Made by a program: the position numbers and the translations under genes | The notes under the pieces: model-generated | Database searches by the model: none | What the model was told of the DNA's origin: nothing | What the model saw: the letters and a program-made list of their open reading frames with translations, nothing else | In this document: positions 692 through 38,956 of the stretch, in pieces | Layout: every line of letters starts with the position of its first letter | Numbering within the stretch: the first letter of the stretch is position 1 | DNA from: an uncultured Candidatus Altimarinota bacterium | Lineage (GTDB): Bacteria > Patescibacteriota > Gracilibacteria > BD1-5 > UBA2023 | Assembly (NCBI GenBank): GCA_936941205.1 | Contig: CAKZJF010000061.1 | Location: 5,744 to 45,743, forward strand | DNA: 40,000 bases | Direction: 5' to 3'

Positions 692-3600
692 TTATGCACG
701 CATTCGAATATCTTGATCATTCGCAGCTGGAGCATCAGAAACGCCAGCTATAAAAGCCTGTCGAGTCACTTGTTGTACTGTCTGGACAGATGAAACTTCT
801 TTATGTAAGAATGCTTGGTACGCATTTTCATTCGATCCATAGGTAGTATATTCTTTCGGATTATCGACCCCAAGAATATTTTCATAACTCATATCAAATC
901 AAAGATCTCGTAATTCTAGCATATACGGATGACGCATAATGGTTCGTTCATACATATCTTTCCTCTCTTCAAGGGTCGTTTTTTCAGCAGCTGTCGCACC
1001 TTTCAATTTATCTCGAAGCCATGCAACTATTTCTTTATTAATATGAGAAAATTGTCATTTTTGATACTCTGTATTTCATTGAAATGTTTCAGATTTTTTA
1101 ATACTTTCAAGGTACGGAATAACGGCAGACTTCCAAAAATATTTATAATCAGTCTCATTCATGTCACCATGCTTTGGTACTACATTGATTTTTAAATCAA
1201 GGTAATGCTTTAAGGTATGATATGTAAATCCTGTTGATGAATCAATCGGAGAGTGAGATGATATAAATTGCTCACTATGTGAATATCCCCCCATATTTCT
1301 AATAGATTCATTTGGATGGGCAGAAGAAGGAGCATATTCATGAGTACCATCGAGCTCTCGAATATAACGAGCAAATGTTGTTCGTACAATGGGGTCACGA
1401 TGTTCTTTTGACTGAATAGCAATAAGTGGATCAGAGAGTTGAAGTACTGGGTGAATTATTTTCCCATAATCTAACCAAAAATCATGGATTACTTCATAAA
1501 TATTTGGATTGTTGAGCTGTTCTGATCGATCGAGTTCAATCATTTTAAGACGAGTACGGGCCTGTTCTGGAAGTTTACCAGAATCAACTAACATATCTAC
1601 TACCGTATGAACTACTGACTGATACACTCAAGCAAGAGAATCATTACGTCAGAAAGTAAAAGCATGGTATGGATTTCACTCAGCATCGGTAAAATTCTTA
1701 AAATCATTCAATGTTTCTGGATGAGCCATTTTTGTTACATTACTCATAGACCAAACAAAGGCTGGACCCATGGAGCTTTGTCCAGGCCATTTCCCCATAG
1801 TTCCTTTTATATTTCCAAGCACCAATGACCATTCACCTGACTTAAAACGTGAAATTGTATAAATAGCACGATCCTTTGCTCCAAGTTTTTCACTCGATTC
1901 TCGTTCTCATTTTTGCTTATTTTTCTCGCGAGCCTCACGAACAGTGTTTCCAAATACCCCAGGACCACCCATGGCCTGAATATAGATATTATTCTCATGA
2001 TTAAACTTGAAAAAACGATCAAGGAGAATAATTTCATTTAACGTGTTAGAAGTTTCGGTATTTACTGCAGATTCTCTTTCTTGACAACGCTTATATTCAT
2101 AAGCAGGATCACATCAACAAGCTCGCACAATACGATCAAACCAGATATGTCCTTTTCCACTCAATTTATCAAGATTACTATCCGCATAAAGCTCACCAGT
2201 AGCTTCAAGGGTTACTAACAGTGCAGCCAATAAGTGTTCTGGTCGAGAATTGGAATTCTCTATAATATGAACAATCTCTGCTCGCATACGGGCTCATTTA
2301 AGATTTCGTATACTTCCCTTCTTTTCTTCGATTGTTTTATTTACATGCTTTGAATAATCCATCATCGCATGATTTTCCAGCATACTAAAACCAGGAATCT
2401 TGGATAATTTCTTTGACATCTTAAACATCGATTCTGCAGAGCGGAATTCAGCCCCTTCTTTCAACATATGTTCAAATGTATGAAAAATCATGCCACCTGC
2501 TTTCCAAAAATCATACGGTGTTTTCCAATTCATGACCCTTCCTAGAAAACCGCCATGCATATGAAGATGTGGTGCCTCATATTCTTTTACTGCATCCGGA
2601 TCGGAATCAAGAAGAGAAGTTAACTTATAACCACGTACCCATCTCATTAAATGACGAAAGGACTTGTCAGCATGTTTTGCATATTTCTTTGTTTTCTTAT
2701 ACTTTACTTCACCATCTTCTTTATTTTCACGTTTTACATCTGAAACGGGTTCAAGAATATTTACTGTATTTAATCCAGTAATTTCAACTTTAATAATGGC
2801 ACCATTGGCATTTTTAAATCCAAATATTGGACTTTTTGAACCATCTCACTGTTGCATTTGAAAGCTATTTTCATGAATACTAAGTCCAGGTTCAGAGAAT
2901 GCTTCTAGAAATGAATCCCCATCATGAATCGGTTTCATTCGTGCAAATGTCTCATGTTCTGCTCGAATTCATTCAATAAAACCAGTGAATGGAATATTTG
3001 GATATATTGTTCCGTCTTCTGATTGAAGAGAGATAATTTGTTCTGTATAGTTTATGCTATCCACTTTTAAAATATCATATTCATCTTCTTCTCAAAACTG
3101 AAAATACGTTCCAACCTCAAATGCAATATCACGATGTGATGGATCAAGTGAATCAATTCTTGCTTGAAATGCCTCTGGATTCGAAAGTTCTGGCTCAGGT
3201 GATATCTCTGGAATACGATTGGTTAATTTCATATGCTCAAAAGCTGCCTCATCCAATATGGTTACTTTTCCTCATCGAGACGTATAGGTTTGAAATTCTT
3301 TTACAAGATCAGCATACAAAAGTTCTTCTGGCGGAAGTTGTGGAGCTCAGATTTGTCATCCAGTATAAGAAATACTTGAAACCTGAATATGTTTAATCGT
3401 TTCAGGAGGATTCATAGTATCTACCCCCATAATCTTCATAAAAAACTTTCAGCCCTGGGGGGTTTCATAACAAATAATTCCCCCTCTTTCAAAGTTTTCT
3501 AATCCTTTTATGAGACATCCTTGTCATGAAGGATCTTTCAGAGTTTCACGAATATATGCGTTAAATTGTGAAAAATCTTCAATATCAGGAGGATTCTCAT

Positions 3601-4612
3601 CTTGATTCCCTCCTCGTAATGATTGAAATCATTCATACAATGCTGCATTCAGATCTTCCTTAAAAGAAATAAAGAAATCATCTACCAAAGTATCGAGAAA
3701 ATCAGTGGAATCAGTACGAATAAAGAATTCTGGATTCCCATCTAATAAACTGGATATAAAACGGTCAAGTTCCTCATGGCTTGAGAATACAGATTCATCT
3801 ACTCCTCAAAAATCAGCATCAATTCGTTGAATAATAAGAATTTTTGCTCTCTCAATATCAAGAAAATTATGCTCTATCAAAAATCCAATAGAAACACGGG
3901 GAAGAAGTTCTTGTATGAGGAATTTTTGCTTTTCTCTACTTGAAGTATCAAGAAGACTTAATAAAAAAGAACAATCATCCTCTGTTACTACTCAAGTAAC
4001 TTGAACTTGACGCATAAGACTATGAAATCTATCCAATAAAACAGGATGAATAGAATCTGAAAATCAAAGATGCTCAATAATCCCTGCAATATCACGAGGA
4101 GCAATGCCTCTATCAATTCACAAAACAAATTCACGACGAATATGTATTTTTCTATTATACATCTTCAGTTGCTCAAAGGATAACGTTTTAATGCTTGAAA
4201 GAATAGAATTCTTTTGGGTAGCATCTAATACAAATTCCTTTTGTATAACATGTTCTAATGCCATTCGCTCATTATTAATCTGCAAACCTGCTTGAAAAAT
4301 CATATTTCGAATTCGCTCATTTGAAAACAATGAAGTATCATCGAAAATTCCTGATGGTATAGATATAAAGTCGTTCGTACTTCCAACCGCCTGTTTTTGA
4401 GCAAGAAATTGAGAAGCAAGATTTCTGACATGTAAAATTCCATCTTTTCAGAGAGCTTTATCATAAAATTCTGTAGCCTGATGAGAACAGATAGCAGTAT
4501 CAATCAGTTCAGTAAGGAGTTGATGAGCGGTAGCAAGTGCATCTTTTGAATTCCCCTGAGTTCACTGTTCATTAATCGCTGCATCTCACTGTGTGTGAAT
4601 TCATGTATCCAT
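692..4612 (-). CDS. large hypothetical protein (1306 aa), no signal peptide, no family recognised
   Basis: Track pieces 692-892, 1076-1627, 2294-2647 and 4118-4330 share one minus frame. I checked by hand that no TAA/TAG occurs in that frame between 692 and 4612, only TGA. First ATG at 4612, with an upstream in-frame TAA at 4628-4630. Stop TAA is at 692-694, directly abutting the yraN stop. Confidence 0.75.
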
Positions 4613-5302: not shown

Positions 5303-5335
5303 AACCTTTCTTGTACTTATGTGCAACGAAAGGTT
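5303..5335 (+). promoter_or_regulatory. terminator-like hairpin in the 5' leader (possible attenuator)
   Basis: aacctttc (5303-5310) pairs with gaaaggtt (5328-5335). A T-rich run follows up to ATG 5358. Its loop (tatgtgca 5318-5325) can pair instead with tgcacata at 5225-5232. Confidence 0.3.
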
Positions 5336-5357
5336 TTTATTTTATTACTCTTTTTTT

Positions 5358-6722
5358 ATGTCAAAAAAGCTTGAACTTCTTATGCCTGCAGGGAATCTTG
5401 AAAAACTCAAATACGCGCTCGCCTATGGTGCAGATGCTGTATATGCTGGAGTACCTATGTTCTCACTTCGTGCCCGTGAAAATCAATTTACGTGGGAAAC
5501 ACTCGCAGAAGGAGTTGAATATTGTCATTCCCGTGGAAAAAAAATCTATTTTACTGCGAATATTTACGCACATAATACGAAAATTAAGCCGTTTATGGCT
5601 GCTTTTGAAAAAATGCAAGCACTCAAACCAGATGCTTATATTATGAGTGATCCTGGACTTATCTATCTTGTACGAAAAAATTTTCCAGAAGCAGAAATTC
5701 ACCTCTCTGTACAGGCAAATAATACAAACTGGGCACAGGCTGAATTCTGGAAATCACTTGGAATCACTCGTATAATCCTTTCTCGAGAACTCTCTCTGAA
5801 AGAAGTAAAAGAAATTCATGAAATGTGTCCTGATATCGAGATTGAGTTCTTTGTCCATGGGGCTATCTGTATGGCATATTCTGGACGATGTCTCCTTTCT
5901 AACTACTTCTCACATCGAGATCCAAATCAGGGAACCTGTTCTCATTCATGTCGTTGGGAGTATAAAGTATTCAAAAAAGATGCAAGTGAGGAGGAGCTCT
6001 ATGATTCTACTGGGCGTCCAGAGGATTATATTCCACTTCAAGGGGAATTTTACCTTGAAGAACGAGAACGTCAGGGAGAAATGATTCCAATCGATGAAGA
6101 TGAATATGGAACTTATATTATGAACTCTCGAGATATATGTCTTCTATCCTATATGCAGGAACTTGCCGATGCAGGTGTTATCTCATTTAAGGTAGAAGGA
6201 AGAAGCAAGACAGTAAACTATCTTGCTTGAGTAGGACGTGCATATCGACCAGCTCTTGATGCAGTGGAAAGTGGTGAAAAATACAATGATGAAGAACTCG
6301 CTGAAGAAGTTTTTGCTATATCAAATCGTGGATATACTCCTGGTTTCCTTGTAGGAAATCCTGGAGAAAAGGCTATCTACTTTGAAAAAAATCTCGATCT
6401 CCACGAAGAGGATCCAGTAGGTATCGTAAAAGGCTATGATGAAACTCGAAAAATGGCTCGTATCGAAGTAAAGAATCGTATCGATATCGGAGATGACCTC
6501 GTACTCCTTTCTCCTTCTCAACGATTCAAGTTTGCTCTCACAGAAATCATTGCTGACCCCATCCTCCTTGGAGATGTGAAATCAGATAAAGCCAGTTCTA
6601 CTGAAGTTCCTGCCAATGGAGAATCTCGAGAATCAGGACATGGAGGACATATTGATCTCTGGATAAATGTTCCGGAAAAACCAGCTGACTATGCTATCAT
6701 TCGAAAGAAACGTACACTCTAG
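5358..6722 (+). CDS. trhP: U32 family protein, YegQ/TrhP-like (tRNA U34 hydroxylation family)
   Basis: 454 aa. Track pieces 5169-6230 and 6264-6722 share a frame and are joined through TGA 6228-6230. MSKKLELLMPAGNLEKLKYALAYGADAVYAG...SDPGL...LSRELSL...FVHGAICMAYSGRCLLSNY...DPNQGTCSHSCRWEY...GTYIMNSRD follows my recollection of E. coli YegQ along its length. TAG stop plus terminator. Confidence 0.85.
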
Positions 6723-9593: not shown

Positions 9594-9671
9594 TGGTGCA
9601 ACCAGCAGGGCTCGAACCTGCGACCTCCTCCTTCGCAGGGAGGCGCTCTAATCCAACTGAGCTATGGCTGC
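9594..9671 (-). tRNA. tRNA-Arg (anticodon GCG), CCA encoded
   Basis: Reverse complement is GCAGCCA-TA-GCTC...GAGC-G-CCTCC-CTGCGAA-GGAGG-AGGTC-GCAGG-TTCGAGC-CCTGC-TGGTTGC-ACCA. It folds as a cloverleaf with a 7-nt anticodon loop C-T-GCG-A-A. Confidence 0.85.
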
Positions 9672-25525: not shown

Positions 25526-25695
25526 AAAAAGGAATTAGGATATATGCATTATATAAGGAATACAGAGAACTCAACATAATTTCTACGAAACATCAAAAGT
25601 ATTTATAATAAAAATACTGAACATGAATAAGTTAGTATCAAAAAAATGCCAGTATAGAGTCTTCTCATTAAAAAATAATTCCCATAAAAAAATGC

Positions 25696-26031
25696 CTACT
25701 TTCGAGGCATTCCATAGTAATCAAATCCTTTTGCATCAGTCATTGAGTGGGTGATATAATTTTTCTTTTTTCCTTTTTTAAAAAAACCTCGTTCATCTAT
25801 TATTCCCATTTCAATAAGTGTTTTGATTTCTTTTGTTGGAAGCTTCTTTTTTGGAAATGCTTCTTTATTTTGCATGTATCGAGTTCTTTTTTTATAACTG
25901 AGATTTGCGCGAGACTGTTTATTTTCATTTCACGTATAAACAAGCGCTTGTTTTTTCTTACCTTTAGCAAGTTTACGAGCTGCTGCTTGTTTTTTTACGA
26001 GTCGAGATGAAAGTCAGTGAGAATTGGCCAT
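25696..26031 (-). CDS. small, very basic hypothetical protein (111 aa, Lys/Arg-rich)
   Basis: ATG 26031, TAG 25696-25698, two in-frame TGA. The hairpin aatgcct/aggcatt plus T-run overlaps the stop. Confidence 0.4.
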
Positions 26032-26039
26032 GTATATAT

Positions 26040-26234
26040 TTATTGATGCTCAGAAGTGAATTGAATTGAAGTGTGAACTCGTCGGTTCATTATCTCTGTA
26101 ATTCAACGGGTAGCTTCTTGATATGAAACAGATGGTATATTAAGCGGAAAGGGTATTTTCTTTATTTCGCCAGGAGAAGAAAAAACTCTATTTCCTGTAG
26201 GAAGTCATGAAAATGCACGATCTACAAAACCCAT
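26040..26234 (-). CDS. hypothetical small protein (64 aa), weak call
   Basis: ATG 26234 lies 14 nt downstream of the tRNA(UCA) gene. TAA at 26040-26042. Two in-frame TGA. No family recognised. Confidence 0.25.
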
Positions 26235-26247
26235 ATTTAAAACAAAA

Positions 26248-26326
26248 TGGAGCGGGGGACCGGGTTCGAACCGACACACCCAAGGGTTGAAGCCTTAGTA
26301 CACTCACTCTTTTATGTTACCCCCGC
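26248..26326 (-). tRNA. tRNA with anticodon UCA (reads UGA) and glycine identity elements: tRNA-Gly(UCA)
   Basis: Reverse complement is GCGGGGG-TA-ACAT-AAAAGAGTGA-GTGT-AC-TAAGG-CTTCAAC-CCTTG-GGTGT-GTCGG-TTCGAAC-CCGGT-CCCCCGC-T-CCA. The 7-nt loop is C-T-TCA-A-C. G1:C72, C2:G71, G3:C70, discriminator U73 and C35 are all present. Confidence 0.85.
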
Positions 26327-26435
26327 AAAAGAAATAAGCACAATATGAATGCGCAGGCATTGTATAAAAACTCCAAAAAATGTCAAAAAAAATAGATTTT
26401 CTGGAAAAAACTCTTTTTCTCTATACACTTGACTT

Positions 26436-28127
26436 ATGCAATCGAATCTCATAAAAATCATAGAAGAAGTTCTCTTTTCTCTCGAGCTTGATAGCTCTAT
26501 TGTTTCAAAAGATGATTTTCATAAGTTTAAAAATCAAATATTTTCAAAATATAAAATTCCATATGGGATATCTGGGATAGATTTTATAGAACGGTATCGA
26601 GGACTTATAAAAGAGGGAAAGCTCCCGGAAAATATTCGAATATGGAAACTTCTCAGAAAACGAGCTGTTCGATCTCTTTCAGGAGTGTCTGTTATATCAC
26701 TTCTTACAAAATTCTGGTGATGCCCTGGAAAATGTATATATTGTCCAACCTATGAAAATCTTCCAAAAAGCTATATCACGAATGAGCCAGCAGTCATGAG
26801 GGCTGAATTGAATGAATTTAATAGTGTAAAACAAGTTCAAAATAGACTCAGATCACTTGAACTTACATGACATACTATAGAAAAATGTGATGTACGAATT
26901 ATAGGCGGGACTTGGAGTGTATATCCGAAAGAATACAAAGATGCATTTATTCGAGATATTTACGATGCACATACTACATTTGAAGCATTGACTCCTTTTA
27001 TAGAAAATGTCGAAGTTGGCGAAGATACTTTTGCACGATTTAAGGTTCGTGAGGGATATAAAATGCAACAATCCAAAACATTAGAAGAAGCACAAGAAAG
27101 GAATCAATCAGCAAAATCTCGTGTAATATGAATGGCAATTGAAACTCGACCTGACTGGATAAATCTTTCAGAGATTGTCGAACTTCGCCACTATTGAGTT
27201 ACTCGTGTCGAAATAGGATATCAAACTACCATCGATTCAATTAACGAACTCAATAAACGTGGCCATGGAAATAAAGAATCTATTGAAGCAACTCGGCTTT
27301 TAAAAGATGCAGGATTCAAGGTGGTGGCTCATATTATGCCGAATTTAGTATGATCAACACCTGAACTTGATAAAGAAAGTCTTGCTCGAGTATTTTCTGA
27401 TAGTAGTTTCCGTCCTGACGAACTCAAACTCTATCCAATGGTAGTTACGCCAAATTCAGAACTTACAGAAATATGGAAAAATGGGTGATATACTCCCTAT
27501 AATGATGAAACACTTATTACTCTCATGGCAGAACTTCAATCATATATACCTGAATATGTTCGACTCAACCGAATGTACCGTGATATTCCAGCAAATGAAA
27601 TACTCGCTGGATCGAAGCTCGCCAACCTTCGCCAAGTAACTGACGAACGAATGGCGAAGTTATGAGTGTACCGAAAAGATATTTCTGCTCGTGAAATTCG
27701 TGCAAAATGAAATAAACCAGAAAATGCTATCCTTGATGAGAATTTTTATGAGGCAAGTGGCTGACATGAATATTTTCTTCAATTTATTGATGACGAAGAT
27801 AGAACCGTATTTTCACTTCTCCGCCTTCGAGTACCTTCTCAATATTTTACAAAAGAAAAACATCCAATGGATGTACTCCAAAATGCCGCTATTATCCGAG
27901 AAGTTCATACATTTTGAGATCAATTACCAATTGGTTCAAAGGCTGATGGAACATGACAACATATGGGATTTGGGAAACGACTTATTGAGCGGGCTGAAAC
28001 CATTATTCGAGAAAAATATCCCACCATTGAGAAGATTGCAGTGATATCAGGAATATGAGTTCGTGGGTATTATGAAAAACGTTGATATCAAAAAGAAGGT
28101 GACTACATGATACGGTATATCCAATAA
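26436..28127 (+). CDS. elp3: bacterial Elp3 homologue (radical SAM + GNAT acetyltransferase; tRNA U34 carboxymethylation family)
   Basis: 563 aa. Radical-SAM cluster motif FW-TGA-CPGKCIYCP. ...RIIGGTWS..., IETRPDWI, RVEIGYQTT..., then a C-terminal GNAT part (...IREVHTFGDQLPIG...HMGFGKRLIERAE...). Track ORFs 26436-26720 and 27691-28044 lie in and near it. TAA at 28125-28127. Confidence 0.88.
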
Positions 28128-30425: not shown

Positions 30426-31013
30426 TTATGAGGATTTAGGTTGGGTAATATTCGGTTTTTTTATATATACTGGTTCTATTTGAGATGTTCAGTTCTTCAA
30501 AGATATATATTCAAATACCTTCCTATTGTCAAAAGAGTATTCAAAATGAGTATTTTTAGATAAAAAATCGGCATTATCTCCAATTCACCAATATTTTCAT
30601 TCCGGAAGATTCTCTATTGTGGAGAGTTCTGGACTATTTCCTTCAGAAAAAAAACAAAGATACTCCCCTCTATTTGCTTTTATTGCATATGGAAGAGGAT
30701 ATCAACAAAGTGTTCAAAGTTGAAACAAGTCGATTGAAACAATCGGCATTTTATAGACAAAAGCCCATGTATTAACGGTTAATGTTATAATTCGTAAAAG
30801 AGTAAAGGCTCACGGACCATTTACTACTCAAATCTTTGCTATGTCTCCCAAAGAAATATGGTGTTCTGAAAGAATTCTTGTAACAAAAGGAAGAAAGTGC
30901 TCAAATTCATTTCCTTTTTCCAAGAAATTGGTAGATATCACTTCTCCTTGTGATCAAAAAACCGTAAAAGTAATCTGTGAGGTAAGAGGTTGTATAAAAA
31001 TGGTATAATTCAT
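30426..31013 (-). CDS. tsaB: tRNA t6A37 biosynthesis protein TsaB (YeaZ family)
   Basis: 195 aa with about 10 in-frame TGA, so invisible in the standard track. ...IAKI-G-VVNGP-G-AFTLLRIITLTVNTWAF... is the TsaB GPGSFTGLRIG-type motif. Confidence 0.75.
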
Positions 31014-32542: not shown

Positions 32543-32630
32543 GTTGGAAAAATATTTTATTTACTATAGTGATTTTCATGCGGTTGTAAAACAAAAAACT
32601 GAATGAATAATTGCGAAATAGGGAAACTTC

Positions 32631-32639
32631 TGTTACAAT
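32631..32639 (+). promoter_or_regulatory. candidate extended -10 (TGTTACAAT) only 8 nt before ATG 32648
   Basis: tgttacaat at 32631-32639 in the 105-bp divergent region between comM and the coupling-protein gene. It would give a leaderless or near-leaderless mRNA. Confidence 0.3.
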
Positions 32640-32647
32640 TTTTGCAT

Positions 32648-35600
32648 ATGAAAAAGTTTTTCTTTTCCAACATACGAACTTCCATTCTTCTTTGGATATT
32701 TTTTTCGGTTTCTTGATATCATAGGCTTGTTATGGCAATACGCCGTGAACCTATTGTTGCCAATGAAAAACCGAAAGTTTCTACCCCATCATCGGATGGG
32801 TGGGATACAGTAGTAGGATGGTGGAATACAGGTATTTCCTGGATTGCATATACCATTCTTGGGGTTATTATATTCTATATAATCGTCAAGGTACTTCGTA
32901 TTGTCTATGAAATATCTACCACCAAAAACCTCGTATATCTCCAAGTCACTTTACCAAGAGCTGACTCAAAACTCGATAAAGAAAAAGAGACAAAGAAGGA
33001 TTTTAAAGAAAAAGTTGGTATCATGAGTGTATTTTACAAAAGTATACACAAGATGACTGAAACAAGTTTTGTGGAAACTTTCATGAACTTTATCTTTCGG
33101 CACGCGAAAATTTCACTTGAATTTTTTTATAATGAATGACTCGTGAGCTTTTATTGTGTAGCTTATAAACAACATACCTCTCTTATTATTCAGCAAATTA
33201 CTTCAAATTATCCAGATGCGGAAGTAAGAGAAGTAAAAGAAGCAGATCTCCCGAACATTAAACCCGATGGATATACACTCCGTATTTCATCAGTTAATAA
33301 AGATCATGATGATGTATACCCTATTAAAACTTACAAATATTTTGAAGATGATCCACTTTCAACTTTTACCAATAATTTTTGATCACTCGGAAAAGAAGAT
33401 AAAGCAGTGGTACAATTTGTCATGAAACCACTCGGTTCAGCATGGAATAAAAAAGCAAAAGAAGCTGCGAGTGCCGTGGCAAAATGAGAATATAAAAAAT
33501 GAATGAAGCTTGGGGTAATTGGAACTCTATTTAGTTGAATTGTTGCACCATTCTCATGGTTTGCATATCGATTTATTAAAAATGAAGCCGATCCATCTTC
33601 AGGAAGTAATGCTCCTGGAGCAAGTGGTGGAGATGCTTATAAAATATTTAATCAAGCGGAACAAGAAGCTCATAAAATGGTCGGTGAAAGTGCCGGACAG
33701 CCTGGATTTGAATGTTCTATCCGTATTCTTGTTTCTTCTCAAACCAGAGAAAGTGCGAGTAACGGTGTTAAAAATCTTATTGCAGCTACTTCAATATTTA
33801 CAGATGAATATAATAATAAGCTTGATAATAGTCAGTGGTGGGACGATATATTTCGGTTTATATCAGCTCCAATAGGATATTTTGAATACCATAATTGTCT
33901 TTCAAATATCATATGGTGACAAAGTAGATTCTCATGTGATGAACTCTCTACGATGTATCATTTTCCAGATATTAATTATAATAAATCTCCGGTTATTAAG
34001 TGGCTTGACTATAAAATGCTTCCAACTCCCTCAAATTTGAAATTTCCAAAAGATCCAACTCTTTTGAGTGATTATAAACGAGATAAGGATGGAAATATCC
34101 TATCAAATGATGGTTCACATCTAAAAGTGGATAAAAATAAGAATCTATTTCGAGATAGCGAGAAACAACTTGAAATGATTGATGGAACAAAAATTCCTGT
34201 CTATGCAGATGGTGATAATAAAGGAAAACCGATTGATGAATGAAAAACTCCAATTCAAGAAACACAACACAGAAAACTCGCTGGATTTCCACTCTATAAA
34301 GATGCTGTACTTATGGGATGGAATGTATATAGAAATATGCAGACTCCAATTTATTTTTCCCGAAAAGATCGTGGTCGTCATCATTATATTATAGGAAAAT
34401 CCGGGTGAGGAAAGTCAGTATTTATCAGTTATATTGCTCGACAAGATCTCTGGAATGGTGACGGACTCTGTGTGATTGATCCCCATGGTGATCTGGTAGA
34501 TGATGTAGTTGCGTTTACTCCGAAAGAACGCGCAAAAGATATGATTATTTTTGATCCTGCAGATTGGGAAAGGCCAATGGGGTTAAATATGCTTGATATT
34601 ATTGCAACTGATCCAAATCTAAAATCGATCGAAAAAGATAGAGCTGCACTGGATGCAACATCGATTTTCATCAAAATGTACGGAGATGAAATCTTTGGAC
34701 CCCGTATTCAGCATTATTTCAGAAATGGTTGTCTTAGTCTCATGGATGATGAGGAGGAGGGAGGAACCCTTATTGATGTTCCACGCCTTTTTACTGATGA
34801 GGCCTTCATGAAATATAAAACATCAAAGATTAAGAATGTCATGGTGAAGGCATTTTGGGAACATGAATATGCACAAACTGGGGATCGTGAGAAACAGGAA
34901 ATGATTCCATTCTTCTCTGCAAAATTCGGTCCATTCATTACAAATACGACGATGCGAAACATCATCGGTCAAACCAAAAGTGCTTTCAATCTTCGAAAAG
35001 TTATGGATGATCAAAAGGTTCTCATGGTGAAGCTTTCTAAGGGTATGATCGGTGATCTGAATGCTCAACTCCTTGGTCTTATTATGGTCTCAAAAATCAA
35101 TATGGCTGCTATGTCTCGTGCAGATACTCCAGAAGATCAAAGAAAAGACTTCTTCCTTTATGTGGATGAATTTCAAAATTTTGCAACTGATACATTCGGA
35201 GAAATCTTGTCAGAAGCACGTAAATACCACTTAGCACTTATTATGGCCCACCAGTTTATTGCGCAGATTGGAGGGAGTGGTGCAAAAAAATGAGATAAGC
35301 CATCTATCAAAGATGCTGTATTTGGAAATGCAGGTACTATCATGTCGTTTAAGGTAGGTGCAGAGGATGCAGAATATCTCGAAAAGGAATATGCCCCACT
35401 TCTATCACAGCAAGACATTATTGGTATTGCAAATTTTACAGCATATTGCAAACTCAATATAGATAATGCAACGACTCGTCCATTTGATATGAAAACTATC
35501 TGGGATAATACCTATAAAAATCCAGAAGTTTCAAAAATTATTACTGAATATTCTCGAAAGATGTATGGTCGAAAAAAAGAATATGTTGATATGGAAATTG

Positions 35601-35653
35601 AGGCACGTATGGGTATCCTTTCAGAGGAAGATAAAACTCAAGAAAACCAATAA
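32648..35653 (+). CDS. type IV secretion coupling-protein-like ATPase (VirD4/TraG/TraD family) with a ~560-aa N-terminal membrane-anchored extension
   Basis: 1001 aa. Six track pieces (32732-33139, 33143-33382, 33677-33919, 33953-34243, 34472-35293, 35342-35653) share one frame. Walker A IIGKSG-TGA-GKSVF, then CVIDPHGDL, Walker B FFLYVDEFQNF, ARKYHLALIMAHQ. Two TM helices in the N-terminal part. Alternative starts at 32603 or 32732. Confidence 0.85.
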
Positions 35654-36991: not shown

Positions 36992-38956
36992 ATGCCTTCA
37001 ATACCTACTATACAAGAACTCGTTGCTCAGAATTATTCATGAGATGCGAGTGGATTCGAAACAAATATATCTCTTCCAAAAGAAAAAATTGAGAAGGATA
37101 TTTCAGAGGGATCAGTTAATCAAGGGAACAGAGAAACGCCTCCACAAATTGAGAAAATTCTACCAGAGATGAATATTCCAAAACTTGGAGAAACGGATGA
37201 TAAAAAAATGACAAAAGAAGAAGCTGAAGAATACAAACAAGCTGAGAGAGAATATAAAGAGGCTCTTGCATTTGTAAAAGATATGATTGCACCAGCCATG
37301 ATTCGTATTGATTCAACGAAGCTTCAAATTGGTGATACCTTTGTTCGAAGTGTTTTTGTCTATGCATATCCTGATATTTTGGAAGGTAACTGGCTCTCTC
37401 CTCTTATTAACTGGGATGTAAAATTTGATATGTCTTTTTTTATCTATCCAGTTGATTCAGGAAGAGTGATGAAGTACTTACGAAAAAGACTTACACAACT
37501 CCGTGCACAATATTCAATCAATCAAGAAAAAGGACTTATTGCTGATCCTCATCTTGAAGCACAGCTTCAAGATGTAGAAGAACTTCAGCAAAGTCTTACA
37601 CGCTGACAGGAACGGTATTTTCATCTCTCTATCTATATTACTATATATGCAGAAACAGAAGATGAAATGAAGAAACTTTCGAATGCCATGGAAGTAATGC
37701 TTTCATGACGAAATGTACTTACGAAACAAACATTTCTTCGTTCAGAACAAGGATTTTTGGCAACTGGTCCATTTGCAAGAGATGAAGTAGGAGTATATAG
37801 AAACATATCAACTCGAGGACTTTCAACCACTTTTCCATTCAGTTCAAATTCCCTTTCTCAGGATGATGGAATTCTCTATGGAATTAATACCCACAATAAT
37901 TCACTTATCATATTTGATCGATTTCGAACAGAAAATGCAAATATGTGTGTATTTGCGAAATCAGGATGAGGAAAGTCTTTCTGAGTAAAACTTGAAATTC
38001 TCCGTTCGCTTATGGTTTGAACTGATGTTATTGTACTTGATCCTGAAAATGAGTATAAATCATTGGTAGATACTGTCTGAGGAACCTATCTCAATATAAA
38101 TCTCAATTCCAAAGAACGACTCAATCCATTTGATCTTCCAAGAGCACTCAAAGATACGAAAGTTCAACCCGGAGATCTCCTTCGATGAGCAATCGTAAAT
38201 ATGATAGGTCTTATGAATCTTATGCTTGGAAAACTCACTCCATCAGAAGAGGCTATCCTTGAAAAGGCACTTATCACAACCTATTCCCTCAAAGGGATCA
38301 CTATGACTGATGATAGTATCGATGGGAAAGAGGTTCCTCTTTTGAAAGATCTCTATTCAGTACTTGAAACCATGGAATGAGGAAAAACCCTTACAGAACG
38401 TATGGATAAATACGTGTATGGTGTTTTCTCTGGTATATTTTCAGAACCAACGAATGTAGATATGAAAGATGGTCTCGTCGTATTCTCAGTACGTGATCTC
38501 GATGAGATCCTTCGACCAATTGCCATGTATATCATTCTCAACTATGTATGGACCACCGCTCGTTCGAGTGAAAAAAGAAGAATGCTGGTAGTAGATGAGG
38601 CCTGGAATATTATGCAATATGAAGATAGTGCAAAATTTCTATTTGGATTGGTAAAACGTGCTCGTAAATATGGACTTGGAGTAACTACCATAACGCAAGA
38701 TGTGGAAGATTTCATGACCAATCAATATGGAAAGGCTATTGTAACCAACTCTTCCATACAACTTCTTCTCAAACAATCACCCGCCTCTATAGATGTACTA
38801 CAGAATATATTTAAGCTTACGGAGCAAGAGAAATATATCCTCCTCAATGCCTCTGTTGGTACTGGACTGTTTTTTGCAGGGACAGAACATGTTGGTATTC
38901 AAATACTTGCAAGTTACTTTGAAGAAAAAATTATTACCACAAAACCAAATGTTTAA
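36992..38956 (+). CDS. VirB4/TraC/TrbE-like type IV secretion ATPase
   Basis: 654 aa with 9 in-frame TGA. Track pieces 37169-37606, 37757-37969 and 38402-38956 share a frame. ...IQIGDTFVRSVFVYAYP..., Walker A VFAKSG-TGA-GKSF, DPENEY, Walker B MLVVDEAW, RKYGLGVTTITQ. Starts 16 nt after the phosphatase stop. Confidence 0.85.

Follow-up and report, generated by a model that had tools for sequence, protein, structure and literature searches.

The UGA-to-glycine reassignment in SR1 and Gracilibacteria, and with it a tRNA-Gly bearing the anticodon UCA, has reportedly been known since 2013. In the literature, genetic code 25 corresponds to the GTDB class JAEDAM01, with the orders BD1-5 and Absconditabacterales. 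Rinke et al. 2013 is cited for the tRNA-Gly(UCA) of Gracilibacteria/BD1-5 both in the Codetta paper (PMC8629427) and in the gTranslate preprint, and a review summarizing Campbell et al. 2013 describes an SR1 tRNA that is Gly-like in its acceptor stem, discriminator and C35, but not in its D and anticodon arms (PMC4695839). The Codetta study judged glycine acceptance of a tRNA with anticodon UCA by the elements G1:C72, C2:G71, G3:C70 and U73 (PMC8629427). Here, we analyze a tRNA gene on the minus strand of a 40,000-nucleotide (nt) stretch of contig CAKZJF010000061.1, from an uncultured Candidatus Altimarinota bacterium; the whole stretch is referred to as the window. The gene is very probably a functional tRNA-Gly(UCA) of a Gracilibacteria/BD1-5-type bacterium (Patescibacteria, genetic code 25). 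The phenomenon is already known, and within the Gracilibacteria family the gene is unremarkable; the present analysis makes modest additions to the anatomy of that family.

The gene spans 26248–26326 and consists of 76 nt followed by an encoded CCA. ARAGORN reports a tRNA at these coordinates, with the anticodon tca at position 37 of the gene, and the Rfam family RF00005 matches 26251–26326 on the same strand with 43.5 bits (E=3.9e-6), above its gathering score of 29. Read in the direction of the gene, the first half is segmented as GCGGGGG, TA, ACAT, AAAAGAGTGA, GTGT, AC and TAAGG, and the second half as CTTCAAC, CCTTG, GGTGT, GTCGG, TTCGAAC, CCGGT, CCCCCGC, T and CCA. A preliminary description, drawn from the letters of the window, had proposed a 79-nt minus-strand cloverleaf with the anticodon UCA; ARAGORN and Rfam both accept the fold, and all the elements that it listed are found by direct reading: an acceptor stem of 7 base pairs (bp), a D stem of 4 bp, an anticodon stem of 5 bp closing the loop C-U-UCA-A-C, with the anticodon at 26290–26288, a variable loop of 5 nt, the T-loop TTCGAAC, and a 3′ end made of the discriminator U73 and the encoded CCA. 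The glycyl-tRNA synthetase (GlyRS) determinants that it had named, G1:C72, C2:G71, G3:C70, U73 and C35, can likewise be read in the gene, and the acceptor set and U73 match the glycine-acceptor elements of PMC8629427. Under the standard code, ARAGORN labels the gene 'SeC' because the anticodon UCA is so named in that code; under code 25, the same genes are labeled tRNA-Gly. ARAGORN calls a UCA tRNA nowhere else in the window, and a structured pattern for the tRNA matches the window once and its shuffles in 0 of 100 cases.

The D and anticodon arms depart from canonical elongator geometry. The D-loop measures 10 nt and lacks GG, and two nucleotides link the D stem to the anticodon stem. The extra linker nucleotide, C at 26298, has a potential partner in G at 26280; if the two pair, the anticodon stem extends to 6 bp (CUAAGG/CCUUGG) and the variable loop shrinks to 4 nt. 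Nearest-neighbor energies favor the cloverleaf with the 6-bp stem over that with the 5-bp stem (-22.0 versus -18.8 kcal/mol, a gain of 3.2 kcal/mol), and the single-sequence minimum-free-energy (MFE) fold also forms the sixth pair. The 'glycine-type body' of the preliminary description thus holds for the acceptor stem, the discriminator and C35, but not for the D arm, linker and anticodon arm, which are strongly derived.

To place the gene among its relatives, one genome per species in GTDB r232 was scanned with a structured pattern (Gly-type acceptor stem, U8, A14, YUUCAR, T-loop, CGC-U). The scan returned at least 120 loci, which fall into two families, A and B, and a remainder; the counts given for each apply among the matches listed. 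Family A comprises at least 74 loci, all 76 nt long with an encoded CCA. Its records, nearly all labeled Gracilibacteria or Peribacteria, include the complete genomes CP017714 (HOT-871), CP060226 and OZ246415, and the labels suggest that family A corresponds to the order BD1-5. The window tRNA falls in this family, with its nearest member 1 nt away and a mean identity of 93%. Family B comprises at least 36 loci of 74 nt without an encoded CCA, labeled Absconditabacteria or Absconditabacterales, with others labeled Peribacteria or Patescibacteria.

Covariation was counted on the 27 distinct family-A sequences among these matches. Standard pairs occupy 99.2% of the pair cells, and this share falls to 27–58% if the 3′ partners are shifted by 1–3 columns. 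Both partners change in six pairs, of which the T stem holds three, the D stem two and the anticodon stem one; the compensatory changes are A-U/G-C and A-U/U-A in the D stem and A-U/G-C in the anticodon stem. None of 500 shuffles reached the observed covariation score. This covariation, the single pattern match in the window, its absence from the 100 shuffles and the Rfam score exclude a chance match, and the gene is under structural constraint. Across the same 27 variants, G1:C72, C2:G71, G3:C70 and U73 are invariant, and the unusual features of the window tRNA recur without exception. The linker is always [A/G]C; the pair equivalent to C26298-G26280 is C-G in 27/27 variants, and because it never varies, the sixth pair is neither proved nor disproved by covariation; the D-loop follows AANNGAGYGA, with no contiguous G18-G19 in any variant. 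The 10-nt D-loop and the 2-nt linker, or alternatively the 6-bp anticodon stem, which the preliminary description had flagged as atypical, are therefore confirmed as invariant. The extra linker nucleotide, most simply forming a sixth C-G pair, and the GG-less D-loop are fixed family traits and not errors.

The tRNA-Gly(GCC) of the same lineage is canonical for linker, anticodon stem and D-loop, and a comparison with this isoacceptor, as the preliminary description had proposed, places the window tRNA at 57–66% identity to it, no closer than unrelated tRNAs. In 12 listed family-A loci, a canonical tRNA-Gly(GCC) stands in tandem within ~40 nt downstream of the tRNA-Gly(UCA); the window itself has no such copy. 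An origin of tRNA-Gly(UCA) by duplication of this tandem neighbor is unsupported at so low an identity. Ten further matches fall outside both families: at eight of them ARAGORN calls a tRNA-Gly-like gene with TCA or a shortened anticodon, and at two it calls no tRNA. Contigs labeled as standard-code (Anaerolineaceae, Akkermansia, Gemmatimonadales, Nannocystis and a Woesearchaeota metagenome-assembled genome) and two viral contigs carry canonical tRNA-Gly bodies with UCA, or with a 6-nt anticodon loop that resembles UCC after the loss of 1 nt. These cases may reflect suppressors, wrongly binned contigs or errors in sequencing.

The genes of the window, whose G+C content is 35%, use UGA as an abundant sense codon at Gly positions and, where examined, never as a stop. 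Reading TGA through extends the longest stop-to-stop open reading frame (ORF) from 357 to 1312 residues and the summed stop-to-stop ORF length from 23.0 kb to 89.6 kb, far more than is gained by freeing TAG or TAA instead. There are 250 in-frame TGA codons in 12,404 codons. In the well-supported genes (9,937 codons), TGA reaches 20.1 per 1000 codons; it is thereby 2.6 times as frequent as TGG and accounts for 28% of the Gly codons. The 21 genes of this set end in TAA (18) or TAG (3), and none ends in TGA.

Homologs with solved structures provide a clean reference for the meaning of this codon because their organisms use the standard code. Ten TGA sites align with Escherichia coli PatA, a putrescine aminotransferase, opposite seven Gly, two Ala and one Leu; 14 align with M. 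infernus Elp3, nine of them opposite Gly and the other five opposite Ala, Lys, Glu, Tyr and Trp, one site for each. Together, TGA stands opposite Gly at 16/24 sites and opposite Trp at 1/24. Ortholog alignments of two genes of the window, Elp3 and an orphan downstream of the tRNA termed gX, give the same picture. Among the columns that contain TGA, the majority residue is Gly in 29/54 for Elp3 and in 8/10 for gX, 37/64 in total against a Gly background of ~6%, and Trp in 0/64. The commonest codon opposite TGA is GGA; Trp is never common opposite TGA, TGA is not among the top five partners of TGG, and none of the four conserved-Trp columns contains TGA. These results, together with U73 and the lack of tRNA-Sec architecture, uphold the earlier proposal that UGA means Gly rather than Trp or selenocysteine (Sec).

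Database copies of gX carry the imprint of a wrong code. In the copy of the window's own gX (P0001), W stands at each of the two TGA codons; several other database homologs have W exactly at the family's invariant G, and calls in code 11 leave fragments. Because these W residues sit on invariant Gly positions, they are products of mistranslation in code 4, and the artefacts therefore place TGA, once again, on conserved glycines. With the tRNA found, translation table 25 is fixed for all genes of the window, in place of 11 or 4. This has practical weight, since public pipelines read the locus in code 4 and write Trp at conserved Gly sites.

A mechanism can be outlined on this basis. A promoter-like site of the sigma-70 type, TTGACA-16-TACAAT (26359–26386, minus strand), matches the consensus at 11 of 12 positions, and its -10 hexamer, identified by this consensus match, ends 32 nt upstream of the tRNA 5′ end. 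Transcription would start from this strong sigma-70-like promoter ~30 nt upstream of the gene (26386–26359) and yield a transcript in which CCA is already encoded. By the identity rules of GlyRS, the enzyme would charge the tRNA with Gly via G1:C72, C2:G71, G3:C70, U73 and C35, tolerating A36. On the ribosome, U34-C35-A36 would pair with UGA and deliver Gly at the codon that specifies 28% of the glycines of the window, leaving termination to TAA and TAG, the only stops seen in the genes examined. The tRNA would in this way be the physical agent of the UGA-to-glycine reassignment.

Several observations weigh against reading the gene as a functional tRNA-Gly(UCA). The single-sequence MFE fold is not the cloverleaf, and its energy is no better than that of shuffled sequences (z = -0.67); it is therefore covariation, together with the tRNA models, that supports the cloverleaf. 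With 43.5 bits, compared with 68.4 for a neighboring tRNA-Arg, the gene scores modestly in Rfam because the D arm is atypical. We infer glycylation from the identity elements, and the tRNA has A36 where GlyRS of E. coli uses C36 as a determinant. About one third of the TGA sites lie opposite residues other than Gly; such matches would be expected at variable positions, and they are not proof of uniform decoding. With regard to the loss of release factor 2, no release-factor gene is present among the genes annotated in the window, which covers 40 kb of the genome. Finally, U34 would have to avoid wobble onto UGG, the codon for Trp.

The anticodon and the decoding of UGA could, in principle, be accounted for in other ways. 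A tRNA-Trp(UCA) of the Mycoplasma-type code 4, which reads UGA as Trp, would have the same anticodon; the translation of the locus in code 4 by public pipelines (P0001) and the existence, according to the literature, of UGA-to-Trp lineages within Patescibacteria lend it some plausibility. The acceptor end speaks for Gly, with U73 in place of the Trp identity element G73 and with the pairs G1:C72/C2:G71/G3:C70, and the alignments place a single Trp opposite TGA in the solved structures, give no Trp-majority column among the orthologs and leave the conserved-Trp columns free of TGA; the W that databases show at invariant Gly positions are annotation artefacts. We regard this explanation as highly improbable. 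Still less credible is a bacterial tRNA-Sec that recodes an occasional UGA. It would share the anticodon UCA and would agree with the 'SeC' label of ARAGORN, which becomes tRNA-Gly at code 25, but a tRNA-Sec of the 8/5 type has an 8-bp acceptor, a long variable arm and G73. The window tRNA has stems of 7/5, a variable loop of 4–5 nt and U73, and the preliminary description had been right to note that neither a long variable arm nor an 8-bp acceptor is present. Moreover, TGA makes up 2% of the codons and occupies ordinary Gly sites in housekeeping enzymes, a usage incompatible with recoding that depends on a selenocysteine insertion sequence.

The modest Rfam score, the MFE fold and the D-loop without contiguous GG might also be taken to mean that the gene is a degenerate, non-functional tRNA-like sequence, with UGA decoded by something else. 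A decaying sequence would not be expected to look like family A, in which at least 74 loci from different species retain 93% mean identity with the oddities themselves invariant, three stems show compensatory substitutions, the promoter is near consensus and CCA is encoded in all 74 listed loci; nor does the window contain a second UCA tRNA, yet TGA supplies more than a quarter of its Gly codons. There is very little to recommend this possibility, which we rate no higher than a tRNA-Trp. As to a suppressor tRNA brought in by a phage or mobile element and foreign to the code of the host, ATPases of the type IV secretion system (T4SS) type lie at 32.6–39 kb, and the two viral contigs mentioned above carry a Gly-type tRNA(UCA). 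The viral tRNAs are 71–72 nt long and stand outside family A, whereas the window tRNA is flanked by chromosomal genes (Elp3, Tex, GDH, an aminotransferase, a thioredoxin-reductase-like protein and Ddl); TGA is used as Gly throughout the housekeeping genes checked, and the arrangement of tRNA and gX is also found in Gracilibacteria genomes, including complete ones. The likelihood of a mobile suppressor is, like that of a tRNA-Sec, close to nil.

The discrimination between UGA and UGG merits separate consideration. MiaA normally uses an A36-A37-A38 context to form i6A37, and the C32/C38 loop of this tRNA family lacks it. The ambiguity of U34 between UGA and UGG is raised explicitly in the Codetta paper (PMC8629427). 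A 2026 study argues that decoding by tRNA-Trp(CCA) becomes looser when its anticodon stem is shortened to 4 bp, and that tRNAs of this kind should be avoided in code-25 genomes. By analogy, the 6-bp stem, the GG-less D-loop and the C32/C38 loop could be adaptations to a split codon box, through which UGA (Gly) would be read without misreading UGG (Trp), with a possible contribution from gX or from an Elp3-dependent modification of U34; we consider this idea speculative and rather unlikely. The lengthened 6-bp stem would mirror, in the opposite sense, the 4-bp stem of tRNA-Trp(CCA), a parallel that draws its support from invariance. Family B does without a lengthened anticodon stem.

The gene gX (25696–26031, minus strand), defined by frame translation, encodes a very basic orphan protein of 111 residues with two TGA codons. 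Encoded on the strand of the tRNA, it lies downstream of that gene and is separated from it by a 216-nt spacer in which no hidden RNA element was found. Among the listed family-A loci with enough sequence, gX follows the tRNA directly, within 600 nt, in 38/60, and the gap in relatives is often 17–30 nt. The short gap and shared strand suggest co-transcription, and gX may thus form one transcript with the tRNA. Its identity ranges from 66 to 89% across 46 fetched family-A loci, and all of its 461 homologs are unnamed. Searches of Pfam, NCBIfam and PDB profiles gave no match. When 1.84 billion representative proteins were searched with a profile, no remote relatives emerged; the search returned just 17 clusters, which consist almost entirely of short gX-family fragments. 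The AlphaFold model is mostly helical (predicted local distance difference test 81.7, predicted template modeling score 0.47); a Foldseek comparison with the PDB gave nothing at E < 1, and its top hits, uS14 chains with a TM score of ~0.24, are not significant. The ORF g24 (25672–26298, plus strand), which overlaps both gX and the tRNA, was rejected as antisense junk.

On the other side of the tRNA, divergently oriented across a 109-nt spacer, lies a gene for an Elp3-type radical-SAM/GNAT tRNA uridine(34) modification enzyme (26436–28127, plus strand). It matches NCBIfam TIGR01211 with 498.6 bits (cutoff 350) and Elp3 homologs in the PDB at E ~1e-90. The two genes are adjacent and divergent in 16/69 listed family-A loci, the tRNA is next to Elp3 in just 5/45 BD1-5-type metagenome Elp3 loci, and at 29 other tRNA loci a membrane protein takes the position of Elp3. 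On these counts, Elp3 was rejected as a dedicated partner of the tRNA as a general rule. The enzyme is common in UGA-recoded BD1-5-type contigs, and its adjacency to the tRNA is sub-clade synteny and no evidence of a partnership. The searchable literature yielded nothing that links Elp3 to these lineages. The window encodes another candidate for U34 modification, a U32-family protein (5319–6722, plus strand), whose best match is TrhP, a prephenate-dependent tRNA U34 hydroxylase, at 476.9 bits, just below the equivalog cutoff of 534 bits. A TsaB-like protein is encoded at 30426–31013 (minus strand).

Elsewhere the window has the content of an ordinary chromosome, with genes for GDH, a class-III aminotransferase, Tex, ABC-F, a thioredoxin-reductase-like protein, Ddl, a YifB/ComM-like protein and the TrhP-like protein. 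The locus is also present on ENA metagenome contigs. Two P-loop ATPases with domains of T4SS or conjugative transfer (T4SS-DNA_transf; TraG P-loop / AAA_10) are encoded on the plus strand at 32603–35653 and 36992–38956, and a 1306-residue protein at 692–4612 (minus strand) has no annotation. CGA is frequent in the window (14.2 per 1000 codons), and both CGA and CGG stand opposite Arg in the Elp3 and gX orthologs; the CGA/CGG-to-Trp reassignment reported for Absconditabacteria has left no sign in these alignments. Most bacteria use a tRNA-Arg with ACG/ICG rather than GCG. The window has a tRNA-Arg with the anticodon GCG at 9594–9671 (minus strand), as do 22 related loci, and Candidate Phyla Radiation bacteria have been described as lacking tRNA-Arg(ACG) and using GCG instead (PMC8629427).

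As regards precedent, a search of the literature, the primary 2013 papers excluded, returned no description of the fixed extra linker nucleotide or 6-bp stem, or of the fixed GG-less D-loop. The searchable literature likewise gave no description of a sharp split of tRNA-Gly(UCA) into two families between sister orders, or of a conserved pair of tRNA and gX. We do not claim novelty for any of the three. The fixed oddities and the two dissimilar tRNA-Gly(UCA) families in sister orders nevertheless provide concrete variants to test; the question of UGA versus UGG is not answered by them.

Compared with described systems, the tRNA-Trp(UCA) of code 4, found in Mycoplasmatales, insect endosymbionts and mitochondria, resembles the window tRNA in that U34-C35-A36 captures UGA in AT-rich, reduced genomes. 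In code 4, UGA and UGG specify the same amino acid and wobble at U34 is harmless, whereas here UGA means Gly and UGG means Trp; because the box is split, the two codons have to be told apart, as PMC8629427 also points out. The possible sixth anticodon-stem pair has a counterpart in human mitochondrial tRNA-Ser(UCN), whose 6-bp stem likewise takes up nucleotides of the linker and variable loop (PMC10412605). That tRNA is unrelated, with another identity and from another domain, and the putative sixth pair of the window tRNA is supported by invariance and energy, not by covariation.

The tRNA-Gly(UCA) of SR1/Absconditabacteria, represented in the scan by family B, shares with the window tRNA the anticodon, the acceptor and discriminator set, the UGA-to-Gly assignment and a divergent D arm. 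However, its identity to the window tRNA and family A does not exceed 66%, in a comparison of the kind that the preliminary description had proposed; its anticodon loop is CUUCAGC, with G37 where the window tRNA has A37, and it has GG in the D-loop and a single canonical nucleotide 26, neither of which is found in the window tRNA. It is also encoded within a cluster of Ala, Tyr, Arg, Glu and Leu tRNAs. The described tRNA-Gly(UCA) of Gracilibacteria/BD1-5, by comparison, has the anticodon UCA, the set G1:C72/C2:G71/G3:C70/U73 and a host in which UGA means Gly, as does the window tRNA; there is no essential difference between the two, and the window tRNA is a member of that family.

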